This document shows positions 6,029 through 64,000 of a stretch of 64,000 nucleotides of DNA, in pieces. Each line of letters starts with the position of its first letter. Position 1 is the first letter of the stretch. Both the position numbers and the translations under genes were made by a program. A model generated the notes under the pieces. That model saw only the letters and a program-made list of their open reading frames with translations, had not been told where the DNA came from and did not search any database. The stretch is from Candidatus Collierbacteria bacterium GW2011_GWB2_45_17 (GTDB lineage: Bacteria > Patescibacteriota > Microgenomatia > UBA1400 > MFAQ01): assembly GCA_001001485.1 (NCBI GenBank), contig LCKO01000002.1, positions 47,567-111,566 of the forward strand. The letters are read 5' to 3'.

Positions 6029-6868
6029 ATGGATCTGGCTCGAGCGGTGTCTGCTACCATTTCCTACGCCAACTACTTTAACTTTCCTCTCTTCCCTAAA
6101 GAAATACATCACTGGTTAATTCACTCTCGTCCCGTGTCTAAGAATGTACTCAAACCATATCTGACAGAAAAAATGTCAGTCGTTAATCGTCGTTACCGTT
6201 TACAAACCAACAAGTTCGCCAAACAAAAAATTCTTCACGCCCAAAAATTAATCGGCTTATTAAAACATTTTCCAGGACTGAGACTCATAGCTCTCACCGG
6301 CTCGGTTGCGGCCAGAAACGCTAAAAAAGATGATGACATCGACCTATTTTTCATTACCACCCCCCACGCACTTTGGCTGGTTCGACCTTTGGTGATCTGT
6401 ATCCTCACCATTTTTTTTCGCCGGCGTCATCCCTTGGAAGATCCTGCTCACGCTCCCAATGCCTTCTGCCCCAATTTCTGGCTCGATACTCTATCTCTTA
6501 CTATCGATGACTCGAAACAATCTCTTTTTACCGCTCACGAAGTTCTGCAAATAATACCTTTACTGGATAGGGGAGATACCTATCAATCTTTTTTGAAAGC
6601 CAACGCCTGGACCAAAAAATACCTCGCCAACGCTTACCTCGCATCTATATCAATCTCTTCTGTAGGGGCGAATCATGATTCGCCCGCAACTATCCCCGTT
6701 TCCCTCCTCCTCGCCCCCCTTAACTTGATTTTTTTCCTTTTTCAGTTTTTGTATATGCTCCCCAAAAAAACCACCGAAACTGTCAATCTTCATGTCGCTC
6801 ATCTCCACACCACCGACTATTCGAGTCAACTAGACGCTTATCTGATCCGGGATCCATCCGGAAACTAG
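6029..6868 (+). CDS. Nucleotidyltransferase-fold protein (Pol-beta-like NTase motif)
   Basis: GSVAARNAKKDDDIDLFF matches the GS-x(9-13)-DxD NTase signature. Confidence 0.4.
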   Translation: MDLARAVSATISYANYFNFPLFPKEIHHWLIHSRPVSKNVLKPYLTEKMSVVNRRYRLQTNKFAKQKILHAQKLIGLLKHFPGLRLIALTGSVAARNAKKDDDIDLFFITTPHALWLVRPLVICILTIFFRRRHPLEDPAHAPNAFCPNFWLDTLSLTIDDSKQSLFTAHEVLQIIPLLDRGDTYQSFLKANAWTKKYLANAYLASISISSVGANHDSPATIPVSLLLAPLNLIFFLFQFLYMLPKKTTETVNLHVAHLHTTDYSSQLDAYLIRDPSGN

Positions 6869-8189: not shown

Positions 8190-11100
8190 ATGGCTGCCCC
8201 CAAATACTCTGTTTTACAGATTCGTCCCGCCAAAGACTCTCTTACCGGTCAGGCCGCCTTTATTGAATTTCTATCTTCCCTCAGAACTGCCCTAAAAGCC
8301 GGTTTTGTGGATCGACTTCTGGGGACTTTCGACACTATCTGTCTGGAAATAGTTAACCTAAACCAAACCACCTACTACATTCTTTCCTGTCCTGAACGTT
8401 TGGAACATCTGGTCCGTGCCCAAATCGCGGCTCAGTACCCAACGGCTTTGATCACGCCCATGACCGATTATCTATCCGACTGGCTGAGTCACGGACAGAC
8501 TTCTTTGGGTCAACTGGTTCTTACCGGACCATCTCATCTTTCCTTGAACAACACTTTGGACGACAAGGTCGACCAGATGGCTTCGATTCTAGGCAGTCTC
8601 GCTCGAATTCCGGCTGGACAAGCCGGAATTATCCAAATCTGTCTTTTTGCCGGACCCAAGAACTGGCAAAAAGCTGTCCGTTCTAGCCTTGAAATTGTTA
8701 CTCCGGCTACGGCTACCGATCCGGCCAAAAGTAAACCCAGTCCCTATAAAGCCATTATCGAAAAGAAACTAGCCTACCCTGCCTACGCTTGTGATATCCG
8801 CTTGGCCGCTATCACTCCAAATTTACACACCTCCATCCAGCTTTTGACACAGCTTGCCGCCGCTTTTGGCACCTATGCTCTTTCGGAAGGGAACAGTCTT
8901 GCTTTAAAAATTCCCAAATCTGCCGGATCTCTCGAAAAACTTCGTCGCATGATGATCGATCGTTCAGCCAAATACTCAAACCAATATCAGTACTTAAACT
9001 ATGGCGAGATAACCGCCATGTTTCACTTACCCGGTGTTTTATTGGCTCCCATCAAGGGAATTGCTTGGGGTAAGACCCTCAAGGGCGAAGCCCCGACCAA
9101 CTTGCCGGTCAACGAGGGTATCACGGCGAGCGAACAAAAACTTTATAATTTTTTCGCCGTCACCGAATACAAAAATCACTTAGCCGTCTTTGGTATGAAG
9201 AAGGGGATTGATCGTTTGCGACATACCTACATTCTAGGAAAGTCAGGTACCGGTAAATCTACCTTAATTGGCCATATGGCTATTAATGACATCCAACATG
9301 GAGAAGGGGTGGCTTTTGTAGATCCACACGGCGATGCCGCCGAAATTCTCTTAGACTATATTCCTGAAAGTCGTATTAATGATGTTGCTTATCTCGACCC
9401 GTCAGTTCCAGGAAAATCATTCTGGATGAATCCGCTTTTTGTCAAAACTCCGGCCCATGGGGAGATGGTCGCCTCGAGCATTGTTTCTATTTTTAGCAAA
9501 CTTTATGGTAATTCCTGGGGACCCCGTCTGGAATACATTCTCAGAAATACTTTATTGACCTTAGTTTACAAACCGGAAACCACCCTCGCCGATGTTCCCC
9601 GCATTCTTACCAATAAAGATTTTCGGGAGAAAGAATGCCTCATTCACGTCACCGATCCTGTCCTCATTAATTTCTGGCGGGATGAATACGACAAATACTC
9701 GGAAAAATTCCAGACCGAAGCTATCGCTCCTATTCTAAACAAAGTTGGTCAGTTTATTACCTCTCCGACTATCCGAGACATTATTAATCATCCCAAGAGT
9801 ACTGTCGATTTTGAGGCAATGATGAACGCCGGGAAAATTATTATTCTCAACCTTCCTCAAGGTAAAATCGGCGAAGACAACGCCGCCTTGCTTGGTGCTA
9901 TGTTCATTTCTCAAATTCAAATCGCGGCCATGAACCGAGCCAACATCAAAGAAGAAGATCGTCGTGAGTTTTTTCTCTATGTTGATGAATTTCAAAACTT
10001 TGCCACCAGCTCCTTTGTCAAAATTCTGTCCGAGGCTCGTAAATACAAACTTGGCTTAATTCTCGCCAATCAATATATTGCCCAACTGCCGGAAGACATC
10101 CAAAACGCGATTTTTGGTAACGTTGGTACCGTCATGAGTTACGTTATCGGGGCCTCCGACGCCGACCGCATCGTGAAGGAATTAAACAATCTCTATACCG
10201 CCGACGACCTTGTTGGACTGGCTAAGTACCAATTGGCTATGAAAATGTCTGTCGATTCCCAAGTCACCCAACCTTTCTCTGCCAACGCACTACCTCTGCC
10301 GGATACCTACATGCACACCAAGGAAAGGGTCTTAGAGGCGACTTACGCCAAATATTATCGCGAAACCAAACCGATGGACATGTCTCAAATCACTGCCCTA
10401 ATGACACCCCCTGCCAAGCGCTTCACCGAGCCGGCCTACGCCCCCAAAGCACTGAGGGAACCTTCAGCGATTGTTTCTCTTGAGGGCCAGGCCTTAGAGA
10501 ATCCTCAATCTGCAAGGCCTGGCCCTGCAGGTAAATCATCATTTCCGTCAAAGGCACCTTACGTGCCTCAGCTTCCCCCAATCATCCCCCGCACCCAACC
10601 CAACCCCTTCAAAATTCCTCCCTCCGGTAAATCTGTCATTCCGAGCAGAGTCGAGAGCGAAGCGCGGCAATCTATTCCCCAGGGCCAGGCCTTAGAGAAT
10701 CCTCAATCTGCAAGGCCTGGCCCTGCAGGTCTCTCTGACCCCTCCCTCGCCGACCTCGATGCTCTTCGCAAAGAAGGTCTCCGCCCCAGTATTGTCGGCT
10801 GTTTTCTAAACGATAAAAAAATTCTTCTGGCCTATCAAAAGTCTTTCAATCAATGGCTTTTGCCTCAGGGGGGAGTGGAAAACAAACAGAATATTAAAGA
10901 TGCCTTTTTTAAGGAACTTGCCGAAGAAGTCACCGACGACTTTCTCAAAACCTGCGACACCGACATTCAATTGGTCGCAGTTGATAAAATCGAATTTCCT
11001 CCCAGCAAGCAAGGTCTTCGCGACATGTCCACCGATTCGGGTGAACCCGTGGTGATGAAAGGCAAGTACTATTATTTTTTTGTGGCCAACTCCAAAAAAA

Positions 11101-11435
11101 CTGAAATTACTCTTGGTGCCACCGAATTTGATGACCTAAAGTGGCTAAACTTCGACGAAGCGTATAAACTAATAAAAGAGACCAATACCGGAGGAAGATT
11201 GAGGATGATCGCCAACCTCCTCCACGTTCTTAAGGACAAAAATCTCTTATCTACCAATCAACCAGAAATTCATGGACCCAAACCCACAACCCAACCTGAA
11301 AGATCAAGAGGAAGTCAGCTACACCCCTCCTCAGTCGTGGGGAACCAATCAGACGACCACGCCCCCTCCATCCTCCTCGACGACCCTCTTGCCAACCTCC
11401 TTGGCAACCCTCGAACCAGCAAACCCGCAAATTAA
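8190..11435 (+). CDS. Multidomain protein: unknown N-domain + TraD/TraG/VirD4-like coupling ATPase (AAA_10 + TraG-D_C-like) + repeat-built linker + C-terminal Nudix hydrolase-like domain
   Basis: Walker A GKSGTGKST, VDPHGD, Walker B/TraG-D_C-like FFLYVDEFQNF..LGLILANQYIAQL; Nudix box-like GGVENKQNIKDAFFKELAEEV; three repeats in-frame in linker. Confidence 0.6.
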   Translation: MAAPKYSVLQIRPAKDSLTGQAAFIEFLSSLRTALKAGFVDRLLGTFDTICLEIVNLNQTTYYILSCPERLEHLVRAQIAAQYPTALITPMTDYLSDWLSHGQTSLGQLVLTGPSHLSLNNTLDDKVDQMASILGSLARIPAGQAGIIQICLFAGPKNWQKAVRSSLEIVTPATATDPAKSKPSPYKAIIEKKLAYPAYACDIRLAAITPNLHTSIQLLTQLAAAFGTYALSEGNSLALKIPKSAGSLEKLRRMMIDRSAKYSNQYQYLNYGEITAMFHLPGVLLAPIKGIAWGKTLKGEAPTNLPVNEGITASEQKLYNFFAVTEYKNHLAVFGMKKGIDRLRHTYILGKSGTGKSTLIGHMAINDIQHGEGVAFVDPHGDAAEILLDYIPESRINDVAYLDPSVPGKSFWMNPLFVKTPAHGEMVASSIVSIFSKLYGNSWGPRLEYILRNTLLTLVYKPETTLADVPRILTNKDFREKECLIHVTDPVLINFWRDEYDKYSEKFQTEAIAPILNKVGQFITSPTIRDIINHPKSTVDFEAMMNAGKIIILNLPQGKIGEDNAALLGAMFISQIQIAAMNRANIKEEDRREFFLYVDEFQNFATSSFVKILSEARKYKLGLILANQYIAQLPEDIQNAIFGNVGTVMSYVIGASDADRIVKELNNLYTADDLVGLAKYQLAMKMSVDSQVTQPFSANALPLPDTYMHTKERVLEATYAKYYRETKPMDMSQITALMTPPAKRFTEPAYAPKALREPSAIVSLEGQALENPQSARPGPAGKSSFPSKAPYVPQLPPIIPRTQPNPFKIPPSGKSVIPSRVESEARQSIPQGQALENPQSARPGPAGLSDPSLADLDALRKEGLRPSIVGCFLNDKKILLAYQKSFNQWLLPQGGVENKQNIKDAFFKELAEEVTDDFLKTCDTDIQLVAVDKIEFPPSKQGLRDMSTDSGEPVVMKGKYYYFFVANSKKTEITLGATEFDDLKWLNFDEAYKLIKETNTGGRLRMIANLLHVLKDKNLLSTNQPEIHGPKPTTQPERSRGSQLHPSSVVGNQSDDHAPSILLDDPLANLLGNPRTSKPAN
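10484..10531 (+). repeat. Family C palindromic repeat copy C1 (GGGCCAGGCCTT-agagaatcctcaatctgc-AAGGCCTGGCCC-tgcagg), in-frame (GQALENPQSARPGPAG)
   Basis: 11-bp perfect inverted repeat arms read directly; identical copy at 10682. Confidence 0.9.
10635..10678 (+). repeat. Family A GTCAT mini-element copy A10 (gtcattccgagcagagtcgagagcgaagcgcggcaatc), in-frame (VIPSRVESEARQSIP)
   Basis: Shares GTCATTCC..GGCAATC termini with copies at 25134 and 51705. Confidence 0.8.
10682..10729 (+). repeat. Family C palindromic repeat copy C2, identical to C1, in-frame
   Basis: Exact 48-nt duplicate of 10484-10531. Confidence 0.9.
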
Positions 11436-12324
11436 ACCAGCCACATCTTTCGGAAGACCCTTGTTGGTCTCGTTAGCTCTAATTCTTTTTGGTATCTTAT
11501 TGGGTGTCCTGGCCGCCCGTTTTCTACCCACACCTAAAACCACAACTACATCTACTCTTCCTGAATCAACTCCCACATCCGAACCAACTGCCACTTGGAA
11601 AACATACACCAATCAAAAGTTGGGGCTCGAATTCATGTATCCGAATAGCTGGCTCGATCCCAAAGAATCGTCATCGTCTGCTATCACAACCTTAAATTTT
11701 GACGATAAATTAATAATCCTAAAAGGAACTTTCAGTGATATATCATCTCTTAGACCCTTCACTTTTGATGAATATGTAATTCGAAGCTACGGCGATGAAA
11801 CGCCCAGATACGACTACAATGAAATCGTCGGTTTCGTTGGAAAAAGAGGACTAGAAAAATCGGTTACGGGTTACAGTGATCTTGTTATTCTTGCCAAGGA
11901 CAACAACTCCACAGAAATTACCTCCATACTTTACCGGTTCAACCTCCAAGACGAAGACGGCAAATTATTCGACCAGATCCTTTCAACCTTAAAATTTACA
12001 GTTGAAGGATCGTCACAAGAAATACTTGGAATACAATTAACACGGTGTTGTTCTTGCCCGACAATAATTGATTCTTCACAAATCGGGGAAAATGGATGGA
12101 TTCTTTATGAACAGGGAAAAGATTATTCCGCTCTGCGGCCAAAAATATGTTCATCTCCAAATATCGGAGTGTGTGCTCCCTGTCCACCGCTCGAGACAAA
12201 ATCATTAGACTGTCAATATAATGGCAAAACCTATAAAAATGGAGAAACGGTTTCCGTCGATAAGTGCAATTCCTGCTCCTGCGACAATGGACAAGTTGCC
12301 TGCACTCTCATGGCCTGTGAATAG
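11272..12324 (+). CDS. Secreted/membrane-anchored protein with Pro/Thr-rich linker and C-terminal VWC-like (von Willebrand type C / chordin-like) cysteine-rich domain
   Basis: TM segment LLVSLALILFGILLGVLAA; C-terminus CQYNGKTYKNGETVSVDKCNSCSCDNGQVACTLMAC fits VWC spacing Cx2CxCx6Cx4C; 5' 164 nt overlap previous ORF so true start may be downstream non-ATG. Confidence 0.5.
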   Translation: MDPNPQPNLKDQEEVSYTPPQSWGTNQTTTPPPSSSTTLLPTSLATLEPANPQIKPATSFGRPLLVSLALILFGILLGVLAARFLPTPKTTTTSTLPESTPTSEPTATWKTYTNQKLGLEFMYPNSWLDPKESSSSAITTLNFDDKLIILKGTFSDISSLRPFTFDEYVIRSYGDETPRYDYNEIVGFVGKRGLEKSVTGYSDLVILAKDNNSTEITSILYRFNLQDEDGKLFDQILSTLKFTVEGSSQEILGIQLTRCCSCPTIIDSSQIGENGWILYEQGKDYSALRPKICSSPNIGVCAPCPPLETKSLDCQYNGKTYKNGETVSVDKCNSCSCDNGQVACTLMACE

Positions 12325-14406: not shown

Positions 14407-14451
14407 GTCATCCTGAGCGAGCCTTCGCGAGCCGAAGGATCACACTCCACC
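14407..14451 (+). repeat. Family A mini-element copy A1 (gtcatcctgagcga..ccgaaggatcacactccacc), 7 nt after groEL stop
   Basis: GTCATCCTGAGCGA start and CACTCCACC end shared with copies at 52375 and 26854/27349/62870. Confidence 0.8.
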
Positions 14452-20682: not shown

Positions 20683-20687
20683 GTCAC

Positions 20688-20722
20688 GTCATTGCGAAGT
20701 CGCTTAAGCGACCGCGGCAATC
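20688..20722 (+). repeat. Family A mini-element copy A2 (gtcattgcgaag-TCGCTTAAGCGA-ccgcggcaatc), 6 nt after stop of upstream gene
   Basis: Internal 12-nt perfect palindrome; same architecture as 25169 copy. Confidence 0.8.
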
Positions 20723-20740
20723 TATACAGATTTTCCTAAA

Positions 20741-20776
20741 CTTGAGTTCTTGATTCCTAGAGTTCTAGAGTTCTTT
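20741..20776 (+). repeat. Family B repeat copy B2 (cttgagtt cttgattc ctagagtt ctagagtt cttttt), intergenic, adjacent to A2
   Basis: Four degenerate 8-mers read directly. Confidence 0.8.
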
Positions 20777-24578: not shown

Positions 24579-25411
24579 TTTGTATTTTGGCTAGTGATTT
24601 CTGCCAATTTAGGCAGGTCTAAGTTGAGTTCGGTAGCGACAAACTCAGCTATTATTTTAACATTCGCGGGTATGTTCACCGTCCCACGAAGCGGTTCTGG
24701 CGCTAAATATGGGCTATCCGTCTCCAGCAGTAACCTGTCCAAAGGCACCCTCCTCAGTAGTTCTCTCAGGTTCCCGGCCGTTTTGTAGGTAATGTTTCCA
24801 CAAAAACTGACGTAAAAACCTCGCTCCAGTATCATTTCCAAAAATTCCTCACTCCCGGCAAAACAATGAAATTGCCCCCGTAGGGGCGCATCGCGATGCG
24901 CCCGCCTAAAATTATCCAATTCATCCCTCATCTCCTCCTCCGCCTCCCGCATATGGATCGCCACCGGCAGATTATTCTCCACCGCGAGCTCCATTTGCCT
25001 CCTAAAAAGCTCTATCTGTTTTTCTTTCGTCTTTTTCTCTTTATCGTAGAAAAAATCCAGCCCTATCTCTCCAATTCCCACTACCCTCTTCGAACTTTTT
25101 ATTATTTCCTCTAATTCACCAATTACAACATCTGTCATTCCGGCCAGCGAGCCGGAATCCATCCCATCGTCATTGCGAGGTCGCCTAGGCGACCGTGACA
25201 ATCCATATAAATCTTCAACATTTTCCGGGTGAATCCCCACCAGGCAATACTGCTGATATTTCTCAGCAATCTCCACCGCCAGTTTGGCATCTTCTACACT
25301 GGTCGAGGGAAAGATCACTCTCTCCACTCCGGCTTCTTGGGCCCGCTTCAGCACCTCCCCAATGTCCGAGAATCTCCTGTCCGTCAGATGACAATGCGTA
25401 TCGATTAACAT
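24554..25411 (-). CDS. tatD: TatD-family metal-dependent DNase/hydrolase with in-frame tandem mini-element insertion
   Basis: MLIDTHCHL start, GIHPEN, GEIGLDFFY, ETDSPYL; 25-aa insert LSRSPRRPRNDDGMDSGSLAGMTD encoded by two family-A elements. Confidence 0.85.
   Translation of the reverse strand: MLIDTHCHLTDRRFSDIGEVLKRAQEAGVERVIFPSTSVEDAKLAVEIAEKYQQYCLVGIHPENVEDLYGLSRSPRRPRNDDGMDSGSLAGMTDVVIGELEEIIKSSKRVVGIGEIGLDFFYDKEKKTKEKQIELFRRQMELAVENNLPVAIHMREAEEEMRDELDNFRRAHRDAPLRGQFHCFAGSEEFLEMILERGFYVSFCGNITYKTAGNLRELLRRVPLDRLLLETDSPYLAPEPLRGTVNIPANVKIIAEFVATELNLDLPKLAEITSQNTKCLYSLDI
25134..25159 (+). repeat. Family A mini-element copy A3a (gtcATTCCGGccagcgagCCGGAATc), in-frame in tatD
   Basis: 8-bp inverted arms read directly. 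Confidence 0.8.
25169..25203 (+). repeat. Family A mini-element copy A3b (gtcattgcgagg-TCGCCTAGGCGA-ccgtgacaatc), in-frame in tatD, tandem with A3a
   Basis: Internal 12-nt perfect palindrome; near-twin of 20688 copy. Confidence 0.8.
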
Positions 25412-27348: not shown

Positions 27349-27391
27349 GTCATTGCGAGGAGGTATTCCGACGTGGCAATCTCACTCCACC
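27349..27391 (+). repeat. Family A mini-element copy A5 (gtcattgcgaggaggtattccgacgtggcaatctcactccacc); 3' end supplies last codons and stop of gene 27382..27744
   Basis: 41/43 nt identical to lepA-internal copy at 62870. Confidence 0.85.
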
Positions 27392-45766: not shown

Positions 45767-47740
45767 TCACCAGCTGTCAATATCTTCAAAATCGTCTTTA
45801 ACCGCCTCCTCAATCTCCCAATCCTGCACAATAATCCTCTTTTTTTCCCCAAATTCATCAAAACCGTCATTGCGAGACGTAGGGGTTTGATTTATCAAAC
45901 CCGTTCGGCGTGGCAATCCAGTGTCTTGAGTTCTTGGGTTCTTGATTTCTTGAGTTCTTTGGATGTTCTCATCCGATATCTCGGATAAAAACCTTGACGG
46001 TATCGATTGATGCCTCCCCCCAAAACTAAGTCTTGATCTGGCCCACGAAAGGGTCAGATTCTCTTTTGCCCTGGTCATGGCCACGTACATGAGTCTCCTT
46101 TCTTCCTCGATCTCTTCTTTACCGCCCTCAAACATCGAGCGGGAGTGGGGGAAAAGCCCCTCTTCCAAGCCCACTACAAAAATCTCGGGAAACTCCAGCC
46201 CCTTAGCCGCGTGCACTGTCATCAAAGTCAGCTTTGCGTTTGATCGGTGTTGTTTAATCTCCGACTCCGAAAGAGCCGCGCTTTCCAAAAATAGCGCTAC
46301 ACTTTCGTACTCTCCGGCCACTGCCAACAGCTCGTTTATATTTTCGATTCTTGCCACATCTTCCTCATCCCTCTCATCAAATCTTTCCATGTAATTAATC
46401 AAATTAATTATTTCCTCCAATAGAGGTCCCGGTCGCCCTTCACTCCTTCTCTTATCAGAAAGTCTCCCGAACCATTCATCAAAAATGGCGGCTTTTCTTT
46501 TTCCGATTTTTTCAATTCTCTGCCGGCTGATTTCCTCACCCGGGTTGTGAATTAGTCGTAAATAGGCGATCAAGTCTTTTACCTCCGCTCGATTATAAAA
46601 CCGCAGTCCGCCAATCAACTTGTAGGGAATATCCCGTCTTAACAGTTCATCTTCAAACGCACGGGACTGGGCATTTGTTCGATAAAGAACTGCTACTTCC
46701 TCCCCCCGGTCACCGATTTTTTTAGATTGATCCACCACATATCTTGCTTCGTCTCTTTCATCCAGGGCTTCAAATAAATTAACTTTTTGACCCATCTCTC
46801 TGGTTGCCGAAAGTTTTAAAGTCGGATGATTAGTATTATTGCTCACCACCCCATAAGCCGCGTCCAAGATATACTGGGTGCTCCGATAATTCTTAGGCAG
46901 TCCGACCGTGGTTAGTTCGGGGTAAGTTTCTTCCAGCAGTCTCAAATTTCTATAATCTGCCCCTCTAAAAGAGTAGATGGCTTGGGCGGCGTCTCCCACC
47001 GCCGTAATATTTCGTTTTTCTCCGGCCAGCAACTTTGTCAGTTCAAACTGAGCTTTGTTGGTGTCTTGATACTCATCCACCAGTATCCACTCAAGTCGGT
47101 CGTTTACCTCTTTTCTAATCCTGTCGATTTCTAACACTTTCACCGCCTTAACCAGCAAATCATCAAAGTCCACCGCGTTGTTCCGAACCAGTCTACTCTG
47201 GTACTCACTCCAAACTTTATTAATCTGCCGGTGAAAATAATCTCTCGACACGTTTTCGGCCTCTTTTAAAGTTACCAAATCGTTTTTCATCTTACTGATC
47301 ATGGCCAAAAACATCCCCGGTTTGTTTTGCTTCGGGTCAATAGAGAGATCTTTAAGCACCTTTTTCATCACGGACTCGGAGTCTTGACTATCAAAAATTA
47401 CAAAATGGGGGCTCACTCCGACCTCCACTCCGTAGTTTCTCAGCAGTTTGGCGCAAAAAGTATGAAAAGTACCGGAAAATCCCAGATCAATCTTTTTGCC
47501 CGCCGAATTGGATGGTTTTGTGCCGATCTTTTTGATTCTTTCTTTCATCTCACCGGCCGCTTTATTGGTGAAAGTTAACAAGGCTATTTTCGTTGGGTCG
47601 ACATTTTTTTCTTTGATCAACCATGCCACTCGGTGGATCAGCACTCTTGTTTTTCCCGAACCTGCTCCGGCCAGAACCAAAAGAGGACCTTCTCCATGAG
47701 TTACCGCCACCAGCTGTTCTTTATTGAGAATATCTACCAC
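45767..47740 (-). CDS. ATP-dependent DNA helicase PcrA/UvrD/Rep family (C-terminal tail carries in-frame A+B repeats)
   Basis: AGAGSGKT Walker A, LVDEYQDTN, VGDAAQAIYSFRGA motif III intact, 657 aa. Confidence 0.9.
   Translation of the reverse strand: MVDILNKEQLVAVTHGEGPLLVLAGAGSGKTRVLIHRVAWLIKEKNVDPTKIALLTFTNKAAGEMKERIKKIGTKPSNSAGKKIDLGFSGTFHTFCAKLLRNYGVEVGVSPHFVIFDSQDSESVMKKVLKDLSIDPKQNKPGMFLAMISKMKNDLVTLKEAENVSRDYFHRQINKVWSEYQSRLVRNNAVDFDDLLVKAVKVLEIDRIRKEVNDRLEWILVDEYQDTNKAQFELTKLLAGEKRNITAVGDAAQAIYSFRGADYRNLRLLEETYPELTTVGLPKNYRSTQYILDAAYGVVSNNTNHPTLKLSATREMGQKVNLFEALDERDEARYVVDQSKKIGDRGEEVAVLYRTNAQSRAFEDELLRRDIPYKLIGGLRFYNRAEVKDLIAYLRLIHNPGEEISRQRIEKIGKRKAAIFDEWFGRLSDKRRSEGRPGPLLEEIINLINYMERFDERDEEDVARIENINELLAVAGEYESVALFLESAALSESEIKQHRSNAKLTLMTVHAAKGLEFPEIFVVGLEEGLFPHSRSMFEGGKEEIEEERRLMYVAMTRAKENLTLSWARSRLSFGGRHQSIPSRFLSEISDENIQRTQEIKNPRTQDTGLPRRTGLINQTPTSRNDGFDEFGEKKRIIVQDWEIEEAVKDDFEDIDSW
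45866..45919 (+). repeat. Family A mini-element copy A6 (gtcattgcgagacgtaggggtttgatttatcaaacccgttcggcgtggcaatcc), in-frame in helicase tail
   Basis: GTCATTGCGAG..TGGCAATC termini with internal hairpin gggtttgat-ttatcaaaccc. Confidence 0.75.
45925..45960 (+). repeat. Family B repeat copy B3 (cttgagtt cttgggtt cttgattt cttgagtt cttt), in-frame (RTQEIKNPRTQD), adjacent to A6
   Basis: Read directly; same frame usage as tsaD copy. Confidence 0.85.
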
Positions 47741-48597: not shown

Positions 48598-49667
48598 GTC
48601 TCATGAAACTTAGCCATGTCAGACCCATGCGCCTTCTCGTCAAATTCCTGTCCGGAATTAAAAATCATCTTTGGTTAATATTTATTGTTTTTGCCGCTTC
48701 CATCCTTGTCGCCCTGGGTGTCGTTGGCTATGGTTATTTATTAAAATTAAATGTCCGCCCCCAAAATCTGCTTAATTTTTTTGGCACTCCAAAAGATAAT
48801 CTGGAAAGCACCGGTGGTATCACCAATTTTTTAGTTTTGGGTATTCGTGGTGAGGGGTCGGAGTCTCCCGATCTTTCGGACACCCTCATTCTGGCGTCGT
48901 ATAACCACGAAAACAATACTACTTCTCTGATCAGTATTCCTCGGGATCTCTGGGTTCCTTCTCTAAAAGCCAAAATTAATACCGCTTATTACTACGGTGA
49001 GCAAGCCAGCCCCGGAGCCGGTATCAATTTTGCCCAAGCCTCCGTTCTGGAAGATCTGGGTCAACCCATCCACTATACCGCCATCGTCAACTTTACTCTC
49101 TTTACTCAGGCTATTGATCTGGTTGGTGGTGTCGACATTGAAGTTAATCCCGGTTTTTCGGACACCCAGTTTCCCATCCCGGGTAAAGAAAAGGCCTTGC
49201 CAATTTCTTCCCGTTACGAAAAAATTTCTTTTTCAGGAGGCATAAATCACCTAGACGGCCAAACAGCTCTCAAATTTGTCCGGTCACGTCACTCGGTCGG
49301 TGATGAAGGCACCGACTTTGCTCGAACGAATCGCCAACAACAGGTAATTTATGCCCTTCGTCAAAAAATTATCAACCCAGGTTTCCTCCTCGATCAAAAA
49401 AAGGTGGACGCTCTGCTTAACATTATCGGAAAAAATCTCAAATCAAACATTGATGGGGATCTCTATCCAACACTGGCCAAACTCGCCTTGGATACTAGAG
49501 ATAAACCTATCCGCACCATCTCCCTCACCGACACCCCCGACAAAAATGGCGTCACTATTCTCGAAAATCCTCCTATATCAAAATATAACGGTGAATGGGT
49601 CCTTATTCCCAAAGATAACAACTGGAACGCTCTCAAGCAATATCTCAAAAACGCCCTCTCCCAATAG
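48594..49667 (+). CDS. LytR-CpsA-Psr (LCP) family cell-wall polymer transferase
   Basis: N-terminal TM; LGIRGEG..DTLILASYN..LISIPRDLWV..DLVGGVDIEV. Confidence 0.8.
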   Translation: MSLMKLSHVRPMRLLVKFLSGIKNHLWLIFIVFAASILVALGVVGYGYLLKLNVRPQNLLNFFGTPKDNLESTGGITNFLVLGIRGEGSESPDLSDTLILASYNHENNTTSLISIPRDLWVPSLKAKINTAYYYGEQASPGAGINFAQASVLEDLGQPIHYTAIVNFTLFTQAIDLVGGVDIEVNPGFSDTQFPIPGKEKALPISSRYEKISFSGGINHLDGQTALKFVRSRHSVGDEGTDFARTNRQQQVIYALRQKIINPGFLLDQKKVDALLNIIGKNLKSNIDGDLYPTLAKLALDTRDKPIRTISLTDTPDKNGVTILENPPISKYNGEWVLIPKDNNWNALKQYLKNALSQ

Positions 49668-49713
49668 GGCCAGGCCTTAAAGGGCACCAATCTGCAAGGC
49701 CTGGCCCTGCAGG
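49667..49713 (+). repeat. Family C palindromic repeat copy C3 (same GGGCCAGGCCTT / AAGGCCTGGCCC arms, variant loop), overlapping stop codon of LCP gene
   Basis: Arms identical to 10484/10682 copies; loop aaagggcaccaatctgc. Confidence 0.85.
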
Positions 49714-49727
49714 ATCGCGATGACAAA

Positions 49728-51680
49728 TTACTTTACCTTCACCAAGTAAGTCTCCCCATTTTCATAAACCATCTCACCTAATTCTTTTATCTGTTCCTCA
49801 TTCACCTCATACATTCCTCTTTCATCGGCTCCCACCAATATCCAACCGATATTATATTTTTTTAAGAGCAAGCTTCTTGCACCTTGGTCTTTCGTTTCAT
49901 AAATCGTTCTTACCTCGACCTCTCGTGCGGCCACTACCTCAAAACCACCTCGCCACAGCCACTCATGCACTCTCCAGCCCTCTATCGTCGGCACTCCCGA
50001 AAAAACCGACACCGCATTAAAATCTGTATAACTGTCTCCCACTGCCTCCACCATATTTTTTTCACCCTTATTTTTTTGTAGATACTTAATCGCCTCGTAT
50101 TTTTCCGGCATCTCTGTTTTTATCCAAGTTTCCCCGTTCAGTCCTTGGTAATTTTTAAAATTATTGTAGAAGTTTGGAAAGGACACTGTCGGGAATATCA
50201 TCGTTCCTAAAAAAATCACTCCGGCCACCGATATCCCCAGCCATCTCAATGGCCAAAGAATTTTTCTATCCGAATCAAACAGTTTTCCCCAAAGAGCTCC
50301 GGCCAGTAGCCCAATCATTATCGAAGCCTGATAAGTTAGTTTAAACATGGTATTGGCTCTCGGGTGATCCGGATAAATATCCTTGGCATAAACCAGTTCA
50401 GGAATGATTATCAAAAGAATCAGTGTCAGGGTAAGTGTCCGTATCATCACCTTCTTTTCGCTTCTTCCCTCGATCAAAACCGCCAGAAGTGAAACCGCCG
50501 CCCCTCCCGCCCAAAGGACGGCCAACTGCCACAAGGGTGACCGTTCCGTCACCATTTTGATGCCGTTTGAGATCGGCTCAAAGGTCGCGAGCCACGGCAA
50601 GGCCGCCAGTATCATGAACAGCCCCATCACTCCTGCCGATCTCATCAAACGTAAAAAGCTTTTTGGTTCCCCGATGACTATCTGTAACCCGGCCACCACC
50701 ATTAGTAATCCGTAAACCGCCACATCCCAAGTATTCGTCATCATCATCACCCCAAAGAGAATGCCCATCAAGACTTCAAACATTATTTTTCGATTCTCCA
50801 GCCAAAGTAAAAAAACCAGTATCAAAAGCAACACCGCGGGTAATCCCAAAACATGGCCATGGAGATCGGCCACCACAAAACTGTATCCGGGAAACTCGTG
50901 AATGGTGTTGTGAATAAATCTAGTGGCGTCAGCATACCAGTAATTGGCTAGACCGCGATTGGAAATAAAGTACCAAATAATCTGACTATTACCGGCGATC
51001 ACCGTAGTCATTGCCCCAATGAGTCCGGCTATCATCCCGGCCAATGGTTTCTTCGCTCCGGCCAAAAAATGCGCAATTCCAAAAGCTATTGACATCGACA
51101 GCCCGGCAATAAATCCCAGCACCAAGTTGTATCCCACCGCCGCCTCCACCATAAACAATCTGATTAAGCCACTAGCCCAGAAGTGGCCAAAAGAATAATA
51201 GTTTATCGATTTTCCGGCTTGCCACATGTCCATGGCCGGCAAAGTGGAGGAGACCAGGTATCTATTGATAAAGCCAAAGTCCATAAACTTCTCCAAGCTG
51301 TCGATGTTTGGTAAAAAACCTCTGATTAAAGTAATTCCCAGTAGTCCCACGAAGAACAAGTACTCTTCCATCACCATAATTTTTATACTTTCTTTCGTTA
51401 GTCTGTTTTCCGGTTTTTTTGTCATCCACCACCAAACATTAAACAAGGCCAGTCCGGACAAGACGGCCACCAAGCCAACATTGGTATTGACCGGCAAACC
51501 CAGGTGAGACAGTTCCCAAATAATTAGACTCGCCGCCAGTGTTGTGATCAGTCGCGAAACCGGCCAGCCTTTGTCGGTGAGTTTGCTAAAAAACGATCTG
51601 GTTACCGGCCAGCAGACTAGCTGTAGAACTAAACTTATCAGATAAACTTTCCCGATGGTGATTAAATCTGTGTATATCAT
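49728..51680 (-). CDS. Large polytopic membrane protein, possibly GT-C-type glycosyltransferase (PMT/ArnT/DUF2298-like) with C-terminal soluble domain
   Basis: About 12-14 TM helices over 500 aa then soluble tail; family assignment tentative. Confidence 0.35.
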   Translation of the reverse strand: MIYTDLITIGKVYLISLVLQLVCWPVTRSFFSKLTDKGWPVSRLITTLAASLIIWELSHLGLPVNTNVGLVAVLSGLALFNVWWWMTKKPENRLTKESIKIMVMEEYLFFVGLLGITLIRGFLPNIDSLEKFMDFGFINRYLVSSTLPAMDMWQAGKSINYYSFGHFWASGLIRLFMVEAAVGYNLVLGFIAGLSMSIAFGIAHFLAGAKKPLAGMIAGLIGAMTTVIAGNSQIIWYFISNRGLANYWYADATRFIHNTIHEFPGYSFVVADLHGHVLGLPAVLLLILVFLLWLENRKIMFEVLMGILFGVMMMTNTWDVAVYGLLMVVAGLQIVIGEPKSFLRLMRSAGVMGLFMILAALPWLATFEPISNGIKMVTERSPLWQLAVLWAGGAAVSLLAVLIEGRSEKKVMIRTLTLTLILLIIIPELVYAKDIYPDHPRANTMFKLTYQASIMIGLLAGALWGKLFDSDRKILWPLRWLGISVAGVIFLGTMIFPTVSFPNFYNNFKNYQGLNGETWIKTEMPEKYEAIKYLQKNKGEKNMVEAVGDSYTDFNAVSVFSGVPTIEGWRVHEWLWRGGFEVVAAREVEVRTIYETKDQGARSLLLKKYNIGWILVGADERGMYEVNEEQIKELGEMVYENGETYLVKVK

Positions 51681-62336: not shown

Positions 62337-64000
62337 ATGTCCAACTCAACTCGAAACTTCTCTATTATTGCTCATATTGATGCCGGCAAATCTACTTTGG
62401 CAGATCGTATGTTGGAAATCACCGGTACTGTTCAGGCGGACAAAATAACCCCCCAACTTCTGGATAGCAACCCTATCGAGCGCGAACGGGGAATCACCAT
62501 CAAACTAGCCCCAGTAGCCATGAGCCACAAGGGTTATACTCTCAATCTCATTGATACTCCAGGCCATGTAGATTTTAATTATGAAGTTGAGCGTGCTCTC
62601 CAGGCCTGCGAAGGCGCCCTACTACTAGTAGATGCCACCAAAGGGGTTCAGGCTCAAACTGTCGCCAATCTCCGTCTAGCCAAGAATCTTGGCCTTACCA
62701 TTATTCCGGTCGTCAACAAAATCGACGCCCCCCTAGCCAACACCTCTGCCGCTATTCGTCAGTTAAAACAACTTTTAAATATCGATATCGAACCATTTCT
62801 GGTTTCCGCCAAAACCGGAGAGGGAGTCAAAAATCTATTAGACCACATCATCTCCGACCTCCCTAGTCCGTCATTGCGAGGAGGTACACCGACGTGGCAA
62901 TCTCACTCCACCCACCCCTTCCAGGCCCTCGTCTTCAACTCCACCTTCGATATCCATCTGGGAGTCATTGCCTTTGTCAAAATCGTTTCCGGAGACCTTC
63001 ATCATGGCGATAAACTGGAGTTTCTAAACTCCGGCCAGTCGCTGACTGCTTCCGAAATTGGCATTTTTTCGCCCGGAAGAACCGAAAAAAAGATCATTGC
63101 CTCCGGTAATGTCGGCTATATCATCACCGGCTTGAAAGATATTCGCCGAGTTTTGGTCGGGGACACCCTCTGTCTTTCCACCCAGATAAAACAGGTCAGC
63201 CCCATACCCGGCTTCCGAAAAATTCACCCCAACGTTTTTTTGGATCTCTACCCGGCCGAGGGTTCACAGTACCGGGATCTGGTCGATGCTTTGGAAAAAT
63301 TAAAACTTAATGATTCTTCCCTCACCACTCAAGGCATCAACTCTCCCATTCTCGGCCAAGGTGTCAAGGTGGGTTTCCTGGGGATGCTTCACGCCGAGGT
63401 GGTGGGTGAGCGACTGGAAAGAGAGTTTGGTCTGCCGGTCATCTCCGTTTCTCCTTCGGTAGAGTACAAAGTTCAGCTCCGTTCCGGTGAAGAAAAATGT
63501 TTTAGTTCTCCGACCGACTTTCCAGATCCGGCTGTAATTACCAAGAGTTACGAACCCATGGCCGCGGTCAACATCGTGGTGACCTCACCCTACGTCGGTG
63601 CCGTCATGGAACTCTGTCAGGATCTGCGAGGCAGTCTGGTCAACGTTTCCTACCTTGATGAGTTAGTCGAGATCGATTATTTCCTACCCCTAATCGAAGT
63701 TATCACCACTCTTCATGACAGCCTCAAAAGTGTTTCTCAAGGCTTTGCTTCCATGGACTACGAACTTTCCGGTTGGCAGGAGGCCGAATTAGTTAAACTT
63801 GATGTCCTCCTCAATCACGAACTCTTCACCCCCATGAGTGTTATAACGGTGAAAGAAAAAGCTTACTACAAAGGCAAAAGAATTTCCGAAAAACTTAAAG
63901 AAGCTATTCCTCGTCAGCAGTTTGAGATCCCTATTCAGGTGGCTATTGGTGGCCAGATCATCGCTCGAGAAACTATCAAGGCTTACCGTAAAGATGTCGA
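62337..64000 (+). CDS. lepA: Elongation factor 4 (LepA), runs off the window end; contains in-frame family-A insertion
   Basis: NFSIIAHIDAGKSTLADR G1 motif, DTPGHVDF, NKID; insert SLRGGTPTWQSHST at 62870-62912. Confidence 0.9.
   Translation, partial: MSNSTRNFSIIAHIDAGKSTLADRMLEITGTVQADKITPQLLDSNPIERERGITIKLAPVAMSHKGYTLNLIDTPGHVDFNYEVERALQACEGALLLVDATKGVQAQTVANLRLAKNLGLTIIPVVNKIDAPLANTSAAIRQLKQLLNIDIEPFLVSAKTGEGVKNLLDHIISDLPSPSLRGGTPTWQSHSTHPFQALVFNSTFDIHLGVIAFVKIVSGDLHHGDKLEFLNSGQSLTASEIGIFSPGRTEKKIIASGNVGYIITGLKDIRRVLVGDTLCLSTQIKQVSPIPGFRKIHPNVFLDLYPAEGSQYRDLVDALEKLKLNDSSLTTQGINSPILGQGVKVGFLGMLHAEVVGERLEREFGLPVISVSPSVEYKVQLRSGEEKCFSSPTDFPDPAVITKSYEPMAAVNIVVTSPYVGAVMELCQDLRGSLVNVSYLDELVEIDYFLPLIEVITTLHDSLKSVSQGFASMDYELSGWQEAELVKLDVLLNHELFTPMSVITVKEKAYYKGKRISEKLKEAIPRQQFEIPIQVAIGGQIIARETIKAYRKDV
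62870..62912 (+). repeat. Family A mini-element copy A7 (gtcattgcgaggaggtacaccgacgtggcaatctcactccacc), in-frame in lepA
   Basis: 41/43 identical to intergenic copy at 27349. Confidence 0.9.

Follow-up and report, generated by a model that had tools for sequence, protein, structure and literature searches.

The closest described counterparts of the element treated here are the GTAG repetitive extragenic palindromes (REPs) and the Rickettsia palindromic elements (RPEs). GTAG REPs have stems of 5-13 bp, loops of 2-20 nt and a one-sided tag that is sometimes degenerate (GYAG); they lie downstream of open reading frames (ORFs), to which they may donate TAG stops, are sometimes intragenic, and are mobilised by Y1 transposases of the REP-associated tyrosine transposase (RAYT) type (Di Nocera et al. 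2013, PMC3733652). The phyla listed for them do not include the Candidate Phyla Radiation (CPR)/Microgenomates (PMC3733652). RPEs are characterised by in-frame insertion into many housekeeping genes (Ogata et al. 2000, reviewed in PMC10969869). Here we describe three copies, C1, C2 and C3, of a hairpin element in a 64,000-nt stretch of the genome of Candidatus Collierbacteria bacterium GW2011_GWB2_45_17 (contig LCKO01000002.1, positions 47,567 to 111,566 of the forward strand; hereafter the window). We consider it reasonably probable, on balance, that these copies belong to a dispersed family of small palindromic elements that behave like REPs and RPEs. As far as we could find, the family is previously undescribed and of a known kind, that of REP/RPE-like small palindromic repeats, here in a Collierbacteria-like CPR genome; our literature search found no description of REP-like or in-frame palindromic elements in CPR/Patescibacteria, nor of the arm sequence in that group. 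The copies in the window are as follows.

10483..10531, + strand: C1, a 49-nt hairpin element, in frame as residues 765-781 of its host protein; 5′ arm AGGGCCAGGCCTT (10483-10495), loop AGAGAATCCTCAATCTGC (10496-10513), 3′ arm AAGGCCTGGCCCT (10514-10526), tail GCAGG (10527-10531)
10681..10729, + strand: C2, a 49-nt hairpin identical to C1, in frame as residues 831-847
49666..49713, + strand: C3, a 48-nt copy with the 17-nt loop AAAGGGCACCAATCTGC, between the convergent LCP and DUF2298 genes

The first-pass annotation of this DNA, made by a model from the letters and their reading frames, had described a 47-48 bp perfect hairpin. The perfect stem stands, but the conserved unit is 49 nt long (48 in C3) and asymmetric, comprising a 13-bp stem (14 bp in C2, where C10680 pairs with G10725), a loop and a one-sided 5-nt tail. 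The annotation was right that C1 and C2 are 100% identical and encode the same peptide twice in frame: the identity spans 50 nt (10483-10532 against 10681-10730; AGGGCCAGGCCTTAGAGAATCCTCAATCTGCAAGGCCTGGCCCTGCAGG(T)), the flanks diverge right at the edges of this stretch, and both copies are translated as EGQALENPQSARPGPAG / QGQALENPQSARPGPAG within the ORF 8190-11435. It also held that C3 has the same arms with a different loop and overlaps the LCP stop codon, which agrees with what we find: the 13-nt arms and the tail CTGCAGG are those of C1 and C2, the loop has 17 rather than 18 nt, and C3 begins with the AG of the TAG stop codon of the LCP gene (49665-49667). With up to 3 mismatches allowed, the window contains three matches to the 22-mer CTGCAAGGCCTGGCCCTGCAGG and 100 shuffles contain none; the 11-mer arm has seven matches against 0.87 expected. 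The hairpins are predicted to fold at -33 to -35 kcal/mol as RNA (z -4.0 to -5.6) and at about -17 kcal/mol as DNA. Tandem Repeats Finder found no array between 10300 and 10900, so that C1 and C2 lie outside any tandem duplication. Rfam at the gathering threshold returned only a tRNA in the window, and a permissive Rfam search of 10400-10800 gave only chance matches to eukaryotic microRNA and small nucleolar RNA models (E about 1-10).

Compared with GTAG REPs, the element is likewise a short, dispersed, GC-rich stem-loop, with a 13-bp stem and a 17-18 nt loop that fall inside the REP ranges. It is extended on one side only, the tail ...CCCTGCAGG reading CCTGCAGGG on the opposite strand, where GCAG (GYAG) abuts the stem; a few copies (at loci L008 and L188; loci are numbered L and aligned orthologous proteins P) have GTAG instead. 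Copies are found downstream of ORFs and between convergent genes, one donates a TAG stop, some are intragenic, and the loop edge is unpaired. Unlike the REP tag, which is unpaired, the tag of the Collierbacteria element has its AG within the 13-bp stem and thus base-paired. The loop, moreover, is long and has a conserved sequence of its own, and a large share of copies lie in frame within genes, whereas GTAG REPs are mostly extragenic. Both ends of the unit carry AGG (AGGGCC...CTGCAGG), which may be a duplication or the element's own.

A scan of one genome per species with the pattern GGCCAGGCCTT-N12-24-AAGGCCTGGCC returned 89 loci. Single matches came from high-GC genomes and look like chance, and multi-copy matches were exclusively in CPR metagenome-assembled genomes (MAGs) of 40-49% GC. 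The scan thereby yielded further copies with perfect arms, 7-15 per MAG in six CPR MAGs (JAKAJD01 15, CAZUFH01 14, JACREM01 13, JAKALT01 8, JAUYJX01 8 and JBBTTM01 7), beside the three in the 64-kb window. Several subfamilies share identical 11-bp arms and have other loops and closing pairs: a Collierbacteria type (cAGGGCC...loop AGAGGrTCCCCAATCTGC...GGCCCTGCAGG), a Gottesmanbacteria/H52 type, a WY3/WY5 type and a short-loop type of C24 bins. All 83 perfect-arm copies in the low-GC loci L001-L089 close their fixed arms with a Watson-Crick pair (A-T 63, G-C 19; shuffle mean 52, maximum 65), the next pair outward is almost always A-T, and pairing ends there; at the first loop positions, no more than 3 of the 83 could pair, against 22 expected from shuffles. 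Judged by this covariation, by the end of pairing farther out and by the unpaired loop edge, the stem is a defined 13 bp and the loop obligatorily open, with an apparent avoidance of pairing that would lengthen the stem into the loop. This brings to mind the unpaired loop-edge residues that RAYT reportedly requires for cleaving E. coli REPs. A metagenome scan with an 18-mer (3′ arm plus tail) gave mostly chance matches in high-GC genomes, its low-GC subset being informative, and no hairpin with these arms was found in viral contigs.

Three of the MAGs with copies, of roughly 46-49% GC, are labelled 'uncultured Pseudomonadales': CAZUFH01 (L007, L014, L017, L034, L045, L060, L063, L071, L075 and L081-L083), CAYHNG01 (L026 and L053) and CAYILS01 (L051 and L068). 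The label looks wrong for CAZUFH01, given its GC content together with its synteny, at about 76% identity, with the Collierbacteria-like window, and is doubtful for the other two.

The statement of the first-pass annotation that palindromic families occupy both coding and non-coding DNA can be extended to many CPR MAGs and to five other housekeeping genes. Pfam-confirmed in-frame copies occur in the Obg GTPase (L048, ...DLQGQALKVGDPIRPGLAAP...), the RNase P protein (L009), YraN/UPF0102 (L053), the FkbM-type methyltransferase (two sites in L184, one each in L034 and L200) and, for the WY subfamily, the CCA-adding enzyme (L043 and L061). About 17 of some 38 type-1 copies lie in frames that stay open over 30 codons or more in both directions, most of which are Pfam-confirmed genes. 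Coding copies are read in several frames and both orientations, the element peptide being LQGQALKVGDPIRPG in Obg and PAGPGLADWGPLRPGP in YraN and FkbM; three of the six frames are stop-free in the C1/C2 sequence of the window, and four of six in the family consensus. A search of a 5.8-billion-protein database with four concatenated stop-free consensus translations gave 40 candidates, none at E<=10, the query being too short.

In these respects the element recalls RPEs, which are also palindromes in frame in unrelated housekeeping genes of a reduced genome, add a short peptide where the fold allows, occur as several families together and have no known dedicated transposase. RPEs are, however, about 100-150 bp long, belong to Rickettsia and carry a CGTC tag, and there is no sequence similarity between the two; the nucleotides of the Collierbacteria element, in addition, are strongly conserved at orthologous sites. 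Membership among the RPEs was therefore rejected on its length (49 nt, about 16 residues), its lack of a CGTC tag and the different phylum, only in-frame insertion being RPE-like. Miniature inverted-repeat transposable elements and similar repeats (Correia, ERIC, BOX and the cyanobacterial small dispersed repeats) are likewise small, non-autonomous, dispersed inverted repeats that fuse in frame with host ORFs and nest into one another. Here, unlike in those elements, the whole unit is one hairpin, with no terminal inverted repeats around an internal segment, and no parent insertion sequence is known for it.

C1 and C2 themselves lie in a gene for a fused ATPase and NUDIX protein, in which the following features matter to the argument.

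8190..11435, + strand: host gene, an ATPase-NUDIX fusion of 1081 aa
10404..10727, + strand: disordered interdomain linker (residues 739-846), carrying C1, the linker core, A10 and C2
10557..10628, + strand: linker core PYVPQLPPIIPRTQPNPFKIPPSG, present in aligned orthologues except P0001 and P0002, the proteins of a deletion allele described below
10635..10672, + strand: A10, an element of another palindromic family (family A), GTCATTCCGAG...GCGGCAATC, translated as VIPSRVESEARQS, 8 nt upstream of C2

Pfam places a DUF8128 / TrwB-VirD4-like P-loop ATPase at residues ~335-661 and a NUDIX domain at 867-996. A search with the host protein returned 2033 proteins at E<=1e-20; among the best 120 of these most have DUF8128 plus NUDIX, and the named ones come from Collierbacteria and other Microgenomates, across which, on the evidence of these homologues, the fusion is conserved. 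An AlphaFold model built with 47 orthologues gives both domains with confidence and residues 739-846 with a predicted local distance difference test score (pLDDT) below 50 and without secondary structure, so that domains and model together bear out the proposal that the repeat stretch forms the ATPase-Nudix linker. The family-A element that had been placed between C1 and C2 is indeed there, at 10635-10672, and now folds poorly (z +2.2).

The comparison of orthologous ATPase genes suggested by the first-pass annotation finds C1 and C2 present or absent among 33 aligned orthologues. The C2 peptide is limited to one clade (the window, P0002, P0046, P0008, P0005 and P0003), inside which two genes are without C2, and C1 to the window lineage and P0003; at 73-80% identity, most orthologues have neither. 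The FkbM sites are, in the same manner, occupied in some species and empty in others. Locus L007 (MAG CAZUFH01, about 76% nucleotide identity, syntenic) carries C1 and C2 at the same sites and in the same frame, with DNA between them that is homologous to that of the window. The C3 counterpart in L082 shares with C3 the loop variant GGGCACC(C)AATCT, unlike C1 and C2. Orthologous copies of C2 in L007, L092, L093 and L095 have invariant arms and tail, and their loop variants track the gene tree. The loop variant shared by C3 and L082, together with C2 loops that follow the gene tree, argues that copies were inherited rather than repeatedly re-inserted; on this comparison the existing copies are old and common to orthologous sites between species.

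The age of the copies and the strong constraint on their nucleotides were not foreseen in the first-pass annotation. Identity at third codon positions of the ATPase domain is 47-49% between the window and L007, L092 and L093. Across the 17 codons of C2, by comparison, each of four species pairs agrees at 16 of the 17 third positions, for which the binomial probability is roughly 7e-5 per pair (p=0.48), and all C2 substitutions between species fall in loop positions. As far as these alignments go, the stem and tail nucleotides are frozen while the synonymous sites around them are near saturation, and the retention of C2 third positions against about 48% in the ATPase domain indicates that the constraint acts on the nucleotides and not on the peptide. 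L092, L093 and L095 were picked from the protein alignment, L007 alone having also matched the arm scan, and with three of the four orthologues so chosen, ascertainment does not account for the synonymous-site result. Within a species, the loops of C1 and C2 also have the same derived states (GAATCCTCAATCT in the window, GGATCCCCGATCT in L007), which points to gene conversion between them.

It is plausible, given these data, that the elements arrived by insertion, and that intragenic copies would persist only where about 16 extra residues are tolerated, as in disordered linkers and surface loops, and where frames are free of stops. Insertion may favour places that already hold other small hairpins. 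The constancy of the arms across subfamilies suggests a sequence-specific protein that recognises the stem, putatively a mobilising Y1/RAYT-type enzyme or a host factor, and selection would then maintain hairpin formation in DNA or RNA.

Several points weigh against a REP/RPE-like family of this sort. Synonymous-site conservation of static copies is not expected of a purely selfish, decaying element, and such strict conservation points to a host-level role or to some correction process; the C2 result, for its part, comes from one site in five species. The invariance of the arms across subfamilies is partly built in by a scan that required perfect 11-nt arms. Copy number is low by the standard of classical REPs, at about 10-20 per ~1 Mb genome. 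Searches with E. coli RayT (tblastn and phmmer) of the window and about 830 kb of hairpin neighbourhoods gave no significant match, which is a limited test. Filled and empty orthologues are too diverged for a target-site duplication or a clean empty site to be delimited; at the sites tried (Obg, YraN, FkbM and the groEL 3′ end) the sequences had diverged too far or held other hairpins.

Synonymous-site conservation is also an argument for a tentative alternative, which we hold to be possible and on the unlikely side, namely that the hairpins are chiefly cis-elements maintained by the host and not selfish DNA. Each GGCCWGGCC arm is a 9-bp palindrome and could be the site of a putative conserved CPR DNA-binding protein, or else the hairpin could serve in RNA form to protect 3′ ends or to mark boundaries of translation or processing; in either case purifying selection would keep the hairpins even within coding sequence. 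Besides the frozen synonymous sites of C2 in five species, this explanation accounts for the invariant arms and tail at the orthologous sites of C1, C2 and C3, for identical 11-bp arms with unrelated loops in very different CPR lineages and for the avoidance of loop-edge pairing, and a 3′-end role fits both C3, between convergent genes, and a copy directly after groEL in L092. However, presence and absence among close orthologues implies that no copy is indispensable at a given site, unrelated hairpins replace copies at the same site, decayed or half copies occur, an in-frame deletion allele loses one copy without the gene being destroyed, and neither a binding protein nor an RNA family is known for the hairpin. 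The explanation is compatible with REP/RPE-like behaviour and does not exclude it. A broader form, in which GGCCWGGCC hairpins are a CPR-wide cis-element under purifying selection even in essential coding sequences, strikes us as doubtful. The hairpins would here be, for example, paired sites for a conserved DNA- or RNA-binding protein acting in chromosome organisation or in the control of mRNA 3′ ends and processing, and new copies would preferentially displace other small hairpins at hot spots.

The surroundings of C3 bear on a third explanation.

48603..49667, + strand: LCP gene (Pfam LytR_cpsA_psr), ending in the TAG stop at 49665-49667
49728..51680, − strand: DUF2298 membrane-protein gene, convergent with the LCP gene

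C3 fills the gap of about 60 bp that separates the ends of these genes, and its position there, like that of the L092 copy just after groEL, is where intrinsic transcription terminators would be expected if the intergenic copies had that function and the copies within genes were accidental duplicates. We regard this as improbable: no T-run adjoins the stem on either strand, a scan around C3 did not call its stem, a separate canonical terminator (a stem followed by TTTTTT) stands after groEL in the window, a 17-18 nt loop is atypical, and efficient termination inside essential genes would do harm. A further alternative, in which selection acts on a functional peptide motif (GQALExPxSARPGPAG) that occurs twice in the linker and the palindrome is incidental to it, is ruled out for practical purposes by the diversity of frames and orientations and by synonymous-site conservation. 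The peptide, conserved where it occurs, is missing from most orthologues, C3 and many other copies are non-coding, other genes read the same DNA in other frames or from the other strand, and synonymous positions are conserved as strongly as non-synonymous ones.

Equally hard to credit is the duplicated 48-50-mer as an assembly artefact, either a false duplication or a collapsed repeat. Independently assembled contigs that encode precisely the 1081-aa protein with both copies number at least 24, spread over 29 assembly-collection blocks; most are 50-200 kb long, and among them are a megahit contig of 124 kb from Rifle groundwater and DNMI01000020.1 (NCBI). On the other side stand P0032, a 98%-identical protein that stops exactly at C1, which suggests a contig break at the repeat, and two independent assemblies, L090 (megahit k127) and L091, which are 99.9-100% identical to the window except for the exact loss of one segment.

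10532..10729, + strand: 198-bp segment, one repeat copy plus spacer, missing in L090 and L091

Assemblies without the second copy were what the first-pass annotation had named as evidence against the duplication, and L090 and L091 are literally such assemblies, yet the duplication stands on the strength of the two-copy contigs and of the ~76%-identical species of L007, which has both copies around a core conserved in orthologues. The C1/C2 duplication is not an assembly artefact. The single hairpin left in L090 and L091 has the left flank of C1 and the right flank of C2, and the deletion takes out the linker core PYVPQLPPIIPRTQPNPFKIPPSG while keeping the reading frame. Since this core is present in the other aligned orthologues, the two-copy state is ancestral, and the single-copy form, to judge from its junction, is most likely a derived in-frame deletion that arose when C1 and C2 recombined or slipped against each other, and less likely an assembly mis-joined at the repeat.

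Several sites hold different small hairpins in different genomes. The site after groEL has a family-A element in the window, a small unrelated hairpin in L095 and a C-type hairpin in L092; the Obg site has a GTAG-type hairpin in L034 and a C-type one in L048; the place that A10 takes between C1 and C2 in the window is held in L007 by a hairpin of the GTAG type. In YraN of L124, half a C-type hairpin is joined to another hairpin (AAGGAGTCTCC...GGAGACTCCTT). 'Solo' halves of this kind, which consist of (C)CTGCAAGGCCTGGCCCTGCAGG and lack the 5′ arm, were seen in a number of CPR-like contigs from metagenomes: L101/L169 (right after the LCP orthologue), L107/L109, L116/L196, L124, L125, L146, L147, L153, L160 and L205. 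The 23-mer CCTGCAAGGCC-T-GGCCCTGCAGG is a near-perfect palindrome in its own right.

The linker itself is a mosaic. L095 (1270-1400) is the window's closest full relative in the rest of the gene; L095 and the more distant L093 share two family-A elements at the position of C1 (window 10420-10560), and the window shares C1 with the distant L007 and not with L095. This distribution suggests recombination or repeated replacement inside the linker.

Other small repeats of the window are listed here.

6662-6685 and 24880-24903, + strand: GTAG-tagged REP-like hairpins, GTAGGGGCGAATCATGATTCGCCC and GTAGGGGCGCATCGCGATGCGCCC (2 matches against 0.03 expected)
10635-10672, 27349-27381, 62870-62902, 20687-20735 and 25168-25216: family-A elements (GTCATTSCGAG...GCAATC)
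~14407-14450: family-A element after groEL
2367-2434, 20725-20776 and 45909-45968: family D1, short runs of the 8-mer TTCTTGAG

The GTAG-tagged hairpins form a third small palindromic family in the genome of the window and its relatives, with further examples in L007 (4078-), L048, L075, L107, L116 and others, and in orthologues they are translated in frame as PVGAGRDLPA-type peptides. Family A occurs both in frame and between genes, its peptides being VIPSRVESEARQS in the window and VIARSETTRQSN, VIASEARQS and SLRGTERRGNL in orthologues. The D1 repeat is found in frame (LKNSRTQ or LTENRELKTEIS) in the linkers of ATPase-Nudix orthologues and in FkbM methyltransferases, where it often adjoins hairpins.

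At its other end, the host gene overlaps the next ORF (11272-12324 in its longest reading) by 164 nt, 11272-11435, and the protein tail, residues 1025-1081, is disordered (pLDDT <50). The product of this ORF is a Cys-rich, VWC-like secreted protein for which public start calls differ (229 against 287 aa), and with the gene calls in disagreement the true start or stop there is uncertain.

The genomes of CPR/Patescibacteria are tiny and streamlined and are thought to be poor in repetitive or mobile DNA, and unusual insertions have often been noted in CPR proteins. In the window and its relatives, at least three to four small hairpin families share hot spots, including some in the essential Obg, RNase P protein and CCA-adding enzyme, and by extending and reshuffling disordered linkers and loops such elements offer a concrete mechanism for the insertions seen in CPR proteins. 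As substrates for recombination, the repeats create in-frame structural alleles in a natural population; they also break or mis-join metagenome assemblies and yield spurious repeat-peptide hypothetical proteins. Two features lie above the routine for repeats of this kind, namely the nucleotide-level conservation of coding copies and an in-frame deletion allele, made by the repeats, at the level of the population. Conservation of nucleotides inside coding sequence raises the question of whether selection at the level of the host can act on a REP-like element, and the constant GGCCWGGCC arm gives a starting point for identifying the protein by which it is recognised. If the hairpins do prove to be a CPR-wide cis-element, they would be the first sequence-specific structural genome element to be defined for Patescibacteria.

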